The notes under the pieces were generated by a model, which was given only the letters and a program-made list of their open reading frames with translations, was not told where the DNA came from and searched no databases. This document shows, piece by piece, positions 2,758 to 49,034 of a stretch of DNA of 64,000 bases. Made by a program: the position numbers and the translations under genes. The stretch lies in the sequence record OQ703618.1. The stretch is one strand, 5' to 3'. Positions within the stretch are counted from its first letter, which is position 1, and every line of letters starts with the position of its first letter. Source of the stretch: Escherichia phage GADS24.

Positions 2758-3573
2758 TTAACAATTTACAGACCAAGTCCATTTGGACGAATCTAAAGGA
2801 AAGTTTTGAATCGTCCACCATGGCTGCATATTGGTTGGTCCTGGGGTTCGCCAGGTATACGGATTCGACGGAGTGCCAATTTGATTAGGCCATGCACCTG
2901 GACTTGTTGCACCAGATTCTTTAAGCAAATCCGCCAATCGTTTTAAAAGGTCTTCACGATCTGAATCTGAATTACGCTCTGGTGGAACCAAACGAGATTC
3001 AATATCATCCCATGTGTGTACGCGTTGTGCAGTACGAGGAATATCATCACGTTCACCACGAGCCAACCAATAAATCGGTACATTAAGAATTTCTGCTGCA
3101 TGGTCACAGTGATGAGCTAAATCGTCAACGTAACAAATCACGTTATATTTTGTTTTAGCTAGTTCGAATAATTGTTCCTTTGAAGAATCATGTCCACACA
3201 TCATTACTTCAGAAAAGGCGCCTGGGAACAAAGCATTCAAATTAAATTGTCTATTCAATCGAGCATCAATTGAATCACCTAGCGCCGTCACGGCTACAAA
3301 ATTATAGTCTTCTTTTAGTTTATTGATAACTCGAAGAGCATCCGAATAAGGCGCTAAGTAACGAATAAAATCAGAGCGATTATATTTTTCTATTAATTGT
3401 TTACCGAGGTTATCGTCGGTATTGAATAGTTTACCAGGAGAAATAAATTTTTCGTCCTGAATCATTTTTAAAATATGTTCTAATGGAAGATTATATTTTT
3501 GGGCAAAATAAGGAAGTCCAGATTGCCAGCTTAAACATACACCATCAATATCGGTCAAAATAGTAGGCTTCAT
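2758..3573 (-). CDS. HAD-superfamily hydrolase-like protein (30.2-like)
   Basis: N-terminal LTDIDGV motif (HAD motif I, DxDG); 271 aa; Trp-rich C-terminal tail. Confidence 0.55.
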   Translation of the reverse strand: MKPTILTDIDGVCLSWQSGLPYFAQKYNLPLEHILKMIQDEKFISPGKLFNTDDNLGKQLIEKYNRSDFIRYLAPYSDALRVINKLKEDYNFVAVTALGDSIDARLNRQFNLNALFPGAFSEVMMCGHDSSKEQLFELAKTKYNVICYVDDLAHHCDHAAEILNVPIYWLARGERDDIPRTAQRVHTWDDIESRLVPPERNSDSDREDLLKRLADLLKESGATSPGAWPNQIGTPSNPYTWRTPGPTNMQPWWTIQNFPLDSSKWTWSVNC

Positions 3574-4028
3574 AGAGAGTCTCTTAATAGGTTTAACACA
3601 TCAATAAATTCAGCTTCGGTTAGTATTGTATCATCTTTTGTTAGACCACTAGCCATGCTGTGCTTCAAAATTTTTCCTTTAGAGGCTTGTAATGCATCGC
3701 GAAAGCCCTTGTTTTGGATCGCTGCTTCAAAATATGCATTTGTATACAACTCTTTCCATGCTGCAGAGTATCTTGAAAAGGGAACTCCAATCCAGAAGAG
3801 GGTCCCACGGTCCTGAGCTCTAGCATAAGCTCGCCCAGCTTGTTGGGCGGCAAGCCCGGATAACCCAAATATACGTCTTTGTTGTTCAACATTTTTCACC
3901 TTACATCCTTGGAGAAATCCTTCAAGACCTCCGAATTGAATACCATCCATAACAAAAGGCCATTGGGCGAAATTACTTAATGCGCATGACGGCCATTTGA
4001 AATTGCTTCTTATTTCTAATTCACACAT
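3570..4028 (-). CDS. hypothetical protein (30.3-like)
   Basis: First ATG at 4026-4028 (track start at 4037 is GTG); overlaps next gene start. Confidence 0.5.
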   Translation of the reverse strand: MCELEIRSNFKWPSCALSNFAQWPFVMDGIQFGGLEGFLQGCKVKNVEQQRRIFGLSGLAAQQAGRAYARAQDRGTLFWIGVPFSRYSAAWKELYTNAYFEAAIQNKGFRDALQASKGKILKHSMASGLTKDDTILTEAEFIDVLNLLRDSL

Positions 4029-30180: not shown

Positions 30181-33100
30181 ATGGCTACTTTAAAACAAAT
30201 ACAATTTAAAAGAAGCAAAATCGCAGGTGCCCGTCCTGCTGCTTCAGTATTAGCCGAAGGTGAATTGGCTATAAACTTAAAAGATAGAACAATTTTTACT
30301 AAAGACGATTCAGGAAATATCATCGATTTAAGCATTTCCGCTGGCGGTAATATCAGTGGAAATGTAACTATTGACGGAACTTTACGCGTCAATGGACCAA
30401 TAAACAATTTTGGAAATTTTTCCACAAGTGGCCAGATTACCGCTGGTAGTAGTATTTCAGCTCAAGTTTTTAGAGCATTGCAAGGTTCATTTTATACAAG
30501 AGCAACAAACGATACTGCAAATGCCCATCTTTGGTTTGAAAATACAAATGGATCGGAGAGAGGTGTTTTATATTCAAAACCACAGTCTGAAAATGAAGGC
30601 GTAATTACAATGCGTGTTCGCCAAGGAACCGCAGCAGGGGCTCAAAATTCAGAATTTCATTTCATTTCTACTGATGGTGGTATTTTCCAGGCACGCAAGT
30701 TAACTGCTTTAACTTCTATTAGTACACCAACTATTAGTGTTAATTTAATTAATCACGATTCTAAAGCCTTTGGACAATATGATTCTCAATCTTTGGTCAA
30801 CTATGTTTATCCTGGCACCGGTGAAACGAATGGTGTAAACTATCTTCGTAAAGTTCGTGCTAAATCCGGTGGCACTATGTGGCATGAGCTTTGTACTGCT
30901 CAGACAGGGCAAGCTGATGAAATGTCTTGGTGGACAGGTAATACCCCACAGTCAAAACAGTATGGTATTCGTAACGATGGTCGAATAGCTGGACGTAATA
31001 GCCTTGCATTAGGTACATTCACTACAGATTTCCCGTCTAGTGATTATGGTAACGTCGGTGTAATGGGCGATAAGTATCTTGTTCTCGGTGACACTGTAAC
31101 TGGCTTGTCATACAAAAAAACTGGTGTATTTGATCTAGTTGGTGGTGGATATTCTGTTGCTTCTATTACTCCTGACAGTTTCCGTAGTACTCGTAAAGGT
31201 ATATTTGGACGCTCAGAAGATCAAGGTACAACATGGATTATGCCTGGAACGAACGTTGCATTTTTATCAGTTCAAACCCAAGCTGATGAAAACACTGCTG
31301 GAGACGGTCAGACACATATTGGCTATAACTCAGGCGGAAAAATGAACCACTATTTCCGTGGTAAAGGCAAAACTAATATTAATACTCAAGAAGGCGTGGA
31401 AGTTAACCCGGGTATTTTGAAATTGGTAACTGGCTCGAATAATGTAATGTTTTATGCTGATGGCGGTATTACATCTGTTAAGCAGCTTTCAATATATAAC
31501 GGAATATATTTAGCAGCTAATAATTCTACTGCTGGGCTAACATTCGCTCCAACTACTACAGTTGATGGCACTAAGCAAATTTTGTGGGAAGGTGGTACTC
31601 GTGCTGGGCAGAATAAAAGCTATGTAACTGTTAAAGCGTGGGGTAATTCATTTAATGCATCTGGTGATCGTAATCGTGAAACAGTTTTTGAAGTAGCTGA
31701 CGGACAAGGTTATTATTTTTATTCCCAACGCGTAGCCCCAAGCGGCTCCGAAACTACTGGTCCTGTTGTAACCCAGTTTGCTGGAGCTGTTAATGCTAGA
31801 GGAAGTATTATTACTGACGGAAGTTTTAAAGTTAATGGATTAAGCACTTTAGTCGGTAATGTTACCATGTCTAATGGTTTGTTTGTTCAAGGTGGTTCTT
31901 CTATTACTGGACAAGTTAAAATTGGTGGAACAGCTGATGCATTAAGAATTTGGAATGCTGAATACGGGGCTATTTTCCGTCGTTCTGAAGATAAGCTTTA
32001 TATTATTCCAACTCCACAGAATGCTGGTGAATCAGGTGGTATTTCTAATTTACGTCCGTTCTATATTGCATTAAGTGATGGTAAAGTCAGCATGGGTCAT
32101 GATGTTGATATCGGCGGCGGTAGATTTAAAGTAGAAGCGGCTGGGACTACGGTTGGTCAACGCATAACAGTAAATATGGCATCAGATGCTATTAGAATAA
32201 ATGCCCCAACACAAGAATCTTCTAACTTCATCCAAGGACGTAAAGCAGATGTTCCAAAATGGTATTTAGGTATTGGCGATGGCGGCAACGTCGTTCGTAT
32301 GCACAGTTACACCTACTCCCATGGTATTGCATTAAACTCTGATACGGTTGATATAGCTAAACCTCTTAGAATAGGTTCAACCCAGATTGGTACTGATGGT
32401 AATATTACTGGTGGTTCTGGTAATTTTGCTAACTTGAATACCACAATAAATAACCTTAAGACGGATATTGTGTCGAGTTATCCAATTGGTGCTCCGATTC
32501 CTTGGCCAACGGATACTCCTCCTGAAGGTTATGCCATAATGGAAGGTCAAACATTTGATGTTGACTTGTATCCTAAATTAGCTGCGGTGTATCCTTCCGG
32601 CGCACTGCCTGATATGCGTGGTCAAACTATCAAGGGTAAACCATCTGGGCGTGATGTATTGAGTACAGAAGCAGACGGTGTTAAGTCACATAGCCATAGT
32701 GCAAGTGCATCAAGCACAGATTTGGGTACTAAAAATACGTCAAGTTTTGATTATGGTAATAAAACGACTTCAAGCTTTGATTATGGTACTAAGACCAGCA
32801 ATACCACAGGTAACCATGCTCATACGGTAAGTGGTACTACGAGTGCAGCTGGTAACCACCAGCACTCACAGACAGGCCCAAGAGGACCTAGTAACCAACC
32901 GACCGGGATATTTCCTAATGGGGCTACTCTAATTAGTGGGTCTCAGGTTGTTGGTTTTGGCCTAAGCAACGGTGTCGTGCCTGGTACAAGCCAATATATT
33001 GCAAAGTCGTCAACAGAAGGTAACCATACTCATAGTTGGTCTGGTACTACAAGCACTACAGGTAACCATGCTCATACGGTAGGTATTGGTGCTCATTCTC

Positions 33101-33237
33101 ATACTGTGGGTATTGGCGCTCATTCTCATACTGTTGCAATTGGTTCCCATGGACATACAATAACTGTAAATGCCACAGGAAATACAGAAAACACAGTTAA
33201 AAACGTTGCTTTTAACTATATCGTTCGTTTAGCATAA
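30181..33237 (+). CDS. 37: long tail fibre distal subunit gp37 (receptor-recognising), with C-terminal His-box array
   Basis: 1018 aa; N-terminal and central regions match T4 gp37 ([49 protein letters not shown]...); C-terminus [31 protein letters not shown] as in T4. Confidence 0.95.
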
Positions 33238-47663: not shown

Positions 47664-47708
47664 GTTGTCTCCTCGTTATGAAGGTATTCTATCATCCGAA
47701 ATCTAAAG

Positions 47709-47727
47709 CAAAAAGGGCCGAAGCCCT
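47709..47727 (-). terminator. Hairpin AAGGGC-UUCG-GCCCUU plus U-tract upstream of gene 39
   Basis: Inverted repeat 47712-47727 with A5 on plus strand. Confidence 0.45.
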
Positions 47728-48002
47728 TATTTAAATTTAATTTTCTGAAGTGCATCAATTGCAGCCAAACGCCCTTGTTCACTTTTAACTGTAATGACCA
47801 CATCGCCTGATACGATCACCGAACCATCAACAAATTCTATAGAGCCTTTTTTGAAATCGACCGCTGTATCTGGTTCCGGAACTTCTTCAAAGAATTTAAA
47901 TTCTGCACCATAAAGCAGAATATCACCTTGCATACTATGAATAGTTCGACCATAATCACCTACGGCTTCTACAGCAATAACAGAAACGCCGTAACCAATC
48001 AT
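47727..48002 (-). CDS. hypothetical protein (39.x-like), 91 aa from first ATG; possibly 3' part of a frameshifted gene
   Basis: ATG 48000-48002 with GGAAGAG RBS; track ORF starts with TTG at 48086; an RBS-preceded ATG at 48152-48154 opens a 23-codon frame that ends at 48083. Confidence 0.35.
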   Translation of the reverse strand: MIGYGVSVIAVEAVGDYGRTIHSMQGDILLYGAEFKFFEEVPEPDTAVDFKKGSIEFVDGSVIVSGDVVITVKSEQGRLAAIDALQKIKFK

Positions 48003-48156
48003 CTCTTCCACAATAAAATCTTTGGACAATAAAGTAGTATGCAGATTAGTATTAAGACGTTTACCAGTCGTATTAAGAAGTCTCAAGAAATTATCTTCTT
48101 GTCCTTTGATAATACGATATATTTCTTACCAATTTCAAAACCTTTAAAAGCCATAA

Positions 48157-48336
48157 TTAACCCTTCTTAAGTAAGTCGTAAAAACCACCATTTACATGTT
48201 TAGGAGCAGAAACCCGACGAGTAGACAGACGATGACATTCAGGGCAAACATCGTTTTCTCGTTCAGAGATCCTTTTAATTTTTTCATATTCATGACCACA
48301 ATCTTCAGATTGACATTTATAGTCGTATAACGGCAT
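48157..48336 (-). CDS. FmdB-family zinc-ribbon protein, 59 aa (below ORF-track cutoff)
   Basis: Hand translation MPLYDYKCQSEDCGHEYEKIKRISERENDVCPECHRLSTRRVSAPKHVNGGFYDLLKKG; CxxC...CxxC with FmdB-like N-terminus MP.Y.Y.C..CGH.YE. Confidence 0.5.
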   Translation of the reverse strand: MPLYDYKCQSEDCGHEYEKIKRISERENDVCPECHRLSTRRVSAPKHVNGGFYDLLKKG

Positions 48337-48338
48337 TA

Positions 48339-48749
48339 TTATTCCTTAAAATGTGCTTTCAACATTTGATACAAAGACCATGCCTGGTCGGTATTTTCGA
48401 TAGTAATCGTCATCACCGGAAATTCAGACAATTCGTCAAGTTCACCAGAATCTTGCTCTTCAGACGCTTGATACGGATTTCCAACTTCGTCAAAGAACTC
48501 TGCTTCATTCGTAGAGAGCCAGATAAAGTTTTCATCAAGGATATCACCACCTGTTGCGTATCCAACCGCACCAGTAGATGTTAAAATTTTAGTAGGACGT
48601 CCGAGATGGTCAACATCTAAAATTTTAAAAGGTTCCATGCCAAGACGTCGTGCATAAATCCCATTATCAGTGTGGTCTTTAATAAACTCTTCTTGGGCCC
48701 GTTTATCTATAAATTGGTACCATGAGTTAACGCGGAATTTATTAGCCAT
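48339..48749 (-). CDS. hypothetical protein, 136 aa
   Basis: ATG 48747-48749 overlapping upstream stop (TAATG); track ORF has 6-codon extension. Confidence 0.5.
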
Positions 48750-48976
48750 TAGTAAGTTTCCTTCCAATAAGTTGTACCATTTTCAGTGATTTCACGGAAG
48801 ATGCCATAGATAGGCATTTCGTCACCGAGTTTTTCGTAAACGTAAACCACTTCGGTGTAGCATAAAAATTCAGTCCAGCTTTTTTGTACAACAACTAAAT
48901 CAGGATTAAACAGAACATCTTCAAACTCATTGATGTTTGAATCAGTAGTTACGTTTTTAATGATTTGACGTTTCAT
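48749..48976 (-). CDS. hypothetical protein, 75 aa
   Basis: ATG 48974-48976 with GAGGAGAA RBS; upstream extension in track would run through the promoter. Confidence 0.5.
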
Positions 48977-49004
48977 AATATTCTCCTCTTGTTTTGATAG
49001 GTCT

Positions 49005-49034
49005 ATAGTATCATAGACCATAGTTGTTGTACAT
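49005..49034 (-). promoter_or_regulatory. Early promoter variant (ATGTAC -35, 18 nt, TACTAT)
   Basis: Motif match. Confidence 0.4.

Follow-up and report, generated by a model that had tools for sequence, protein, structure and literature searches.

Between goF and gene 39 of Escherichia phage GADS24 (record OQ703618.1), the stretch of DNA analyzed here, a window of 64,000 nucleotides, reads as a small zinc-ribbon ORF followed by two short overlapping frames. Are these two frames the pieces of a single gene, and if so, is the break in the phage or in its record? The original prediction, made from the sequence alone, regarded the zinc-ribbon frame as a micro-ORF missing from the list of ORFs and explained the other two by a frameshift in a gene of roughly 140 aa, with a pseudogene, a sequencing error, or a programmed shift as the possible causes. 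We addressed these questions by comparing the locus with the same region of related phages.

Results

Comparison of the 1.2-kb locus with phage records gave 388 matches, none of them identical, and the best of these was Escherichia phage JN02, with 98.8% identity. The window is identified as a Mosigvirus (RB69-like Tevenvirinae) genome. On the minus strand, the order is cef, goF, the 59-aa ORF, the split gene, a hairpin terminator, and gene 39 (Table 1). This is the goF-39.2-ORF005c-gene 39 early-gene block of RB69-like Mosigvirus. Elsewhere in the window, a segment at 30763-31990 is only about 75% identical to JN02, with flanks at 97 to 98%. It forms part of the distal long-tail-fibre gene (a 1018-aa ORF at 30181-33237 on the plus strand), and its divergence from JN02 is the usual host-range mosaic. 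An exact look-up of this protein in the contig index gave no entry.

Table 1. Features at the goF-gene 39 locus, with positions in the window
Feature	Position	Strand	Basis or remark
cef	48749-49021	-	Gene upstream of goF
goF (comC-alpha) ortholog, 136 aa	48339-48749	-	PHROG 622, E 3.7e-37; annotated in RB69 and Mizar
Zinc-ribbon gene, 59 aa, intact, ATG start; ortholog of T4 39.2 (NwgI)	48157-48336	-	ORF, profiles, synteny
5' fragment of the RB69ORF005c ortholog, 23 codons	48083-48154	-	Own RBS, GAAGGG, at 48166-48161
Private 2-nt insertion (AT), (AT)2 to (AT)3, repeat spanning 48117-48122	48117-48118		Alignment with JN02, NHEP36, and Mizar
Rest of the ORF005c ortholog, read in its ancestral frame (codons 13-141 and the TAA)	47727-48116	-	PHROG 622
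Terminator-like hairpin (GGGCTTCGGCCC, then a T run)	47713-47728	-	GC-rich; immediately follows the stop of ORF005c
Middle-promoter-like site for gene 39	47686-47710	-	Pattern match
Gene 39, fused 60+39 topoisomerase II large subunit, 605 aa	45846-47663	-	Downstream neighbour of ORF005c

The zinc-ribbon ORF, which encodes MPLYDYKCQSEDCGHEYE...CPECH..., lies exactly where it had been placed and passes the tests for an FmdB-type protein. It scores 49.3 bits against Pfam PF09723 (Zn_ribbon_8; curated cut-off, 34.4) and 48 bits against NCBIfam TIGR02605 ("FmdB family zinc ribbon protein"; cut-off, 31.3), and it also matches PHROG 1076 ("FmdB-like transcriptional regulator"). Its N terminus, MPLYDYKC, fits the MPxYxYxC motif. 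These matches are far above chance and assign the protein to the FmdB family, with a predicted zinc ribbon. Two CxxC pairs had been described. The second is indeed CX2C (C31/C34), but the first is CX4C (C8/C13), with a 2-residue insertion relative to the FmdB family model. While the canonical FmdB first pair is CX2C, the window ORF and T4 alike have CX4C.

When compared with the 58-aa T4 39.2 protein, in a form that we reconstructed from the T4 record, the window protein is identical at 42 of 56 residues (75%; E = 2e-32). Its gene occupies the slot of T4 39.2, RB14 39.2 (which encodes 58 aa), and RB69p006, between goF and gene 39, and the order goF-39.2-gene 39 is the same in T4, RB14, RB69, and 10 contigs. 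A tblastn search with the protein matched 848 phage records, with an identity of at least 99% in 134 cases; among the matches listed, 39.2 is annotated in RB69, RB14, and many of the 848 records. The likeness to T4 gp39.2 extends to length (58 to 59 aa), to the pattern MPLYDYKC...CP.CH with its four cysteines, to a place in the gene order just after goF and before gene 39, and to an occurrence across T-even phages. With no substantive difference between the two, we identify the 59-aa ORF as the ortholog of T4 gp39.2/NwgI, an already known gene. It was absent from the ORF listing because 59 aa is below the 60-aa default threshold, and in this sense it had been missed; in RB69, RB14, and other phages, it is already annotated as 39.2/NwgI. 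Annotators should use this name for the 59-aa ORF. T4 gp39.2 is described as a 58-aa modulator of the GroES/GroEL machine, NwgI, which pushes GroEL toward an open, GroES-binding conformation (Ang and Georgopoulos 2012, cited in PMC5153855). GroEL modulation and a growth requirement on specific groEL mutant hosts are known for T4 39.2 only, and a role at GroEL may be predicted for the window ortholog.

The T4 reference record has an irregularity of its own at this gene. In NC_000866 (3647-3840, minus strand), the annotated 39.2 is 45 aa long, and the conserved C terminus (PKHGNNGFYDLLKG) resumes in another frame right after the annotated stop. Elsewhere the gene is read continuously: RB14 has the 58-aa ORF, and T4T matches residues 1 to 57 of the query in one piece. 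The published T4 protein, too, has 58 aa (PMC5153855). The frame change, taken together with RB14, T4T, and the published length, suggests that the T4 reference carries a 1-nt discrepancy.

Next to 39.2, both frames that had been proposed for the split gene have the coordinates given to them. The ATG at 48154-48152, with GAAGGG 6 nt upstream, opens a 23-codon ORF ending at 48083, which consists of 12 native codons (MAFKGFEIGKKY) followed by 11 out-of-frame codons and a TGA (48085-48083). The second frame, -1 relative to the first, is open from 48125 to a TAA at 47729-47727 (132 codons from stop to stop), and the sole candidate for a start codon in the remainder of the gene is a TTG at 48086-48084 that overlaps the TGA (TTGA). 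This remainder matches PHROG 622 over profile positions 9 to 131 of 132 (E = 3e-17).

The same interval is a single 426-nt (141-aa) CDS in JN02, NHEP36, and Mizar. In the alignment, these relatives read AAGAAATATCG and the window reads AAGAAATATATCG; at 48115-48124, the window has AAATATATCG, and the form without the insertion is AAATATCG. The two extra nucleotides sit between codons 12 (Y) and 13 (R), inside a KKYRI motif. Four of its residues, K10, K11, Y12, and I14, do not vary, not even in the RB14 homolog, which is 43% identical, and the N terminus, F..GKKYRI, is conserved as far as that homolog. The proposed frameshift in a gene of about 140 aa is thus borne out: orthologs have an uninterrupted ORF of 140 to 141 codons, and the window has 2 nt more at codon 12/13 and stops after 23 codons. 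We regard the window copy as a disrupted allele of the ORF005c orthologous group.

A gene of the 39.x series had been expected here. The split gene is instead 91.8% identical in nucleotides to RB69p005 of RB69 (NP_861695) and 98.4% identical to its NHEP36 counterpart, in the same slot, and we identify it as the ortholog of RB69ORF005c (RB69p005) and of RB32ORF005c of RB14, a gene that T4 does not have. The likeness to RB69ORF005c covers 92 to 99% nucleotide identity, the slot between 39.2 and gene 39, and a shared start codon, RBS, and terminator; the difference is that the window copy alone has the AT insertion. We considered T4 39.1 as an ortholog and rejected it, as 39.1 is a different, lipoprotein-like gene that coexists with ORF005c in RB14. 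RB14 has both genes, T4 only 39.1, and the Mosigviruses only ORF005c. T4 39.1 has a history of its own. RB14 39.1 (1275-1535) encodes 86 aa with a signal peptide and a lipobox-like LVGC, and in the T4 reference (3399-3670) the gene falls into two parts, a 24-codon ORF without annotation (MKYISRSIAALVLAVSLINSTDAD, then a stop) and the 65-aa 39.1 of the record. Where the two meet, T4 has one T more than RB14, and a different residue takes the place of the lipobox Cys. By this comparison, T4 39.1 is a further accessory gene of this slot that has been frameshifted or has decayed.

How widespread is the split form? A search with the gene found 157 phage records, and all 60 of those listed, an even sample down the ranking, fit an uninterrupted gene of 423 or 426 nt as judged by match length. 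A tblastn search with the intact protein likewise gave 157 records at 80% identity or above, and each of the 16 listed matches over its full length in one piece. In all ten genome or metagenome contigs whose gp39 is identical, the ORF005c slot has a called gene of 140 or 141 aa. Exact-protein look-ups with the 119-aa and 91-aa fragments and with gp37 gave no entry. The insertion allele, sought with a 76-nt probe in the phage collection, was absent from all 17 records matched, and the exact 28-mer across the insertion was absent from IMG/VR. An exact 23-mer scan of metagenomes produced one match, to an unrelated AT-rich contig without BLAST similarity to the window, which we dismissed as chance. 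Every full-length ORF005c copy examined is intact and forms a single gene, and the original prediction had named two independent short genes in orthologs as the finding that would speak against it. Among all the relatives compared, the insertion is seen in this sequence only.

The rest of the gene bears no sign of age. Once the two bases are removed, the window encodes the 141-aa protein of NHEP36 without a single change; the 5 differences between the two genes are all synonymous, and so is the one substitution in ORF005c that is private to the window. Third codon positions account for 23 of the 32 variable sites in the 426-nt copies. Purifying selection thus acts on this gene in the lineage, and no decay is seen in the window copy; therefore the break is either very recent or not real.

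To judge the quality of the sequence, we aligned the 64 kb with JN02. Most of the 99 gap events are compensating pairs in divergent segments, mainly in tail-fibre genes. Isolated indels of a frame-shifting length are found at 781, 988, 5569, 9327/9330, 14377, 16015, 22065, 24427, 37276, 37335, 51106, and 57173. All of them are non-coding, lying before start codons, after stops, or where no frame is open. Those at 781, 5569, 22065, 24427, 37335, 51106, and 57173 are differences in the length of A or T runs, and all lie outside annotated or inferred coding sequences, in intergenic or upstream DNA. Relative to JN02, the AT insertion is the only indel in the 64 kb that breaks a CDS.

ORF005c matched no Pfam or NCBIfam family, and its homologs are confined to Mosigvirus (139 to 147 aa) and Tequatrovirus (122 to 124 aa), with a few truncated forms. 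PHROG 622 is matched by both ORF005c (E = 3e-17) and goF (E = 3.7e-37). The direct comparison of the two proteins is weak (BLASTP E = 0.042; hhalign E = 0.008 at a probability of 4.8%), and the hhalign alignment is colinear over the N-terminal domains. The matches suggest that goF is a distant paralog of ORF005c. An AlphaFold2 model of ORF005c, built from a 20-sequence alignment, has an N-terminal beta-rich domain at moderate confidence (pLDDT 68 overall, mostly 64 to 87 over the N-terminal 95 residues). A Foldseek search of viral models with it retrieved many uncharacterised early proteins of T4-like phages, including T4 MotB.1 (P39415; E = 8e-4). The GoF/MotB.1/Frd.2 family, LSm-like proteins of Tevenvirinae, is marked by an N-terminal five-stranded barrel of SH3 topology with FeoA-like structural neighbours. 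ORF005c resembles it in the PHROG 622 match that it has in common with goF, in the beta-rich N-terminal domain of its model, in a place in the early region, and in apparent dispensability, but is not named as a member by Kim et al. (2025, PMC12152347). Although the scores are low, ORF005c is probably a further, unlisted member of this dispensable family. T4 deleted for goF or motB.1 has normal growth and a normal burst size, and an effect on RNA stability or expression in T4 is seen only with the GoF(D25Y) mutant (PMC12152347).

Discussion

The split frame is a very recent, private frameshift, whether a genuine mutation that inactivates the gene or an error in the consensus; of the three causes originally proposed, the pseudogene and the sequencing error are kept, and the programmed shift is not. 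If the consensus is wrong, the real phage has an intact 141-aa gene, and the extra AT is a base-calling or polishing artefact in a dinucleotide repeat. We take this to be a serious possibility, if the less probable one. An insertion allele that is unique among all the relatives examined, and whose removal restores the exact protein of a relative with no other damage, is what one would expect of it; an error, too, would leave the gene otherwise undecayed and the allele unseen anywhere else. Public records of T4-type phages do hold such discrepancies, as in the case of 39.2 in the T4 reference. Arguing for the phage rather than the record is the spectrum of the other indels. Since the homopolymer differences are confined to the small non-coding fraction, the sequence appears to be accurate and its indels filtered by selection, as in real variation. 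An error-prone assembly would spread indels into coding sequence too, but no second CDS is broken in the 64 kb. Moreover, the commonest errors of current sequencing platforms are of other kinds than a 2-nt insertion outside a homopolymer. The pattern moderately favours a genuine mutation over a consensus error.

The two remaining explanations accept the sequence as it stands and make it functional. In one, a -1 shift or a +2 hop on UAU-AU within 48083-48125 would produce the full-length protein. The new UAUAU could let tRNA-Tyr re-pair 2 nt downstream and restore the exact ancestral frame, and a lone A_AAG motif is present in the overlap at 48107-48104; both points are speculative, and low-level slips of these kinds do occur in E. 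coli. In dnaX, IS911, and T4 gene 60, too, one protein is encoded by two overlapping frames, and the gene 60 bypass is known from the phage lineage to which the window belongs. Unlike these systems, the window has neither conservation nor a slippery heptamer, stimulatory structure, or take-off and landing architecture. The full-length copies examined in relatives consist of one uninterrupted ORF, inspection of 48083-48125 found no X XXY YYZ heptamer in the zero frame, and the fold predicted for the RNA downstream is no more stable than those of shuffled sequences (z = -0.57). The flanking sequence does not differ from that of intact relatives, which means that no features favouring a shift have evolved, and we consider programmed recoding very improbable. 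We give even less credence to two independent genes, a 23-aa micro-ORF and a separately initiated gene of about 119 aa. Here the TTG overlapping the TGA has a geometry that fits termination-reinitiation, but no good Shine-Dalgarno sequence is suitably spaced from it. The 23-aa ORF opens with 12 codons that make up the conserved N terminus of the ortholog, and in the second-frame translation the alignment with PHROG 622 begins at residue 2 (codon 48122-48120). As an evolved arrangement, two genes are refuted by comparison with the orthologs, which are one ORF; at most, incidental reinitiation might occur.

We therefore favour, as the probable account, a recent, strain-private AT duplication that knocks out a probably dispensable ORF005c and leaves 39.2 intact. 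We infer that the change happened in the phage and not in the consensus, that it came about by slippage, and that the loss is tolerated. The tandem duplication in the ATAT microrepeat at codons 12/13 would most likely have arisen by replication slippage. With the normal RBS and ATG kept, the allele would direct synthesis of a 23-aa peptide, and the 141-aa protein would not be made. Minor products are conceivable. Reinitiation at the TTG might yield a 119-aa product without the conserved N terminus; inspection of the sequence around this codon found no well-placed Shine-Dalgarno for it, the nearest candidate being an AAGGA 15 nt upstream. Alternatively, a rare +2 slip of tRNA-Tyr on UAU-AU might give traces of the full-length protein.

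Loss of ORF005c is probably tolerated, because the gene looks like a member of the GoF/MotB.1/Frd.2 family and gene 39 appears to be separately driven. T4, which has no ORF005c, speaks for dispensability. Shortened homologs (93 to 94 aa, 62% coverage) are present in some Tequatrovirus genomes, for instance in Escherichia phage ECO4 (NC_054911, 15950-16201). Together with the absence from T4, they suggest that ORF005c has been truncated or lost repeatedly in T-even phages. As for gene 39, the site downstream of the hairpin has a perfect MotA box, tttTGCTTTA (TGCTTTA at 47710-47704), followed after 12 nt by a -10 element, TAGAAT (47691-47686), and then by the GAGGAG RBS of gene 39. The consensus for middle promoters is (a/t)3TGCTTtA at 12 +/- 1 bp from the -10 element (PMC2988021), and the site looks like a candidate MotA-dependent middle promoter of the topoisomerase gene. 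With a terminator hairpin, a promoter-like site, and an RBS of its own, gene 39 should be unaffected by the insertion.

A more interesting role for the insertion is improbable, in our view. The AT might be a selected knockout, for example, in an escape mutant freed of a protein that triggers or is targeted by a host anti-phage defence or is otherwise costly on the isolation host, or the +2 hop on UAUAU might tune the dose of the protein. If either were true, it would be the first phenotype for an uncharacterised GoF-like member of the LSm family.

For annotation, the frameshifted ORF005c should be marked as such, either as a pseudogene or as sequence in need of checking, and not entered as two hypothetical ORFs. 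The biological consequence of the recent AT duplication that we favour is small, and we see no sign of a new mechanism. Should the mutation be real, it would be one more natural indication that a GoF-like early gene is dispensable under the conditions of isolation, and the isolate would be a ready-made knockout for studying this family.
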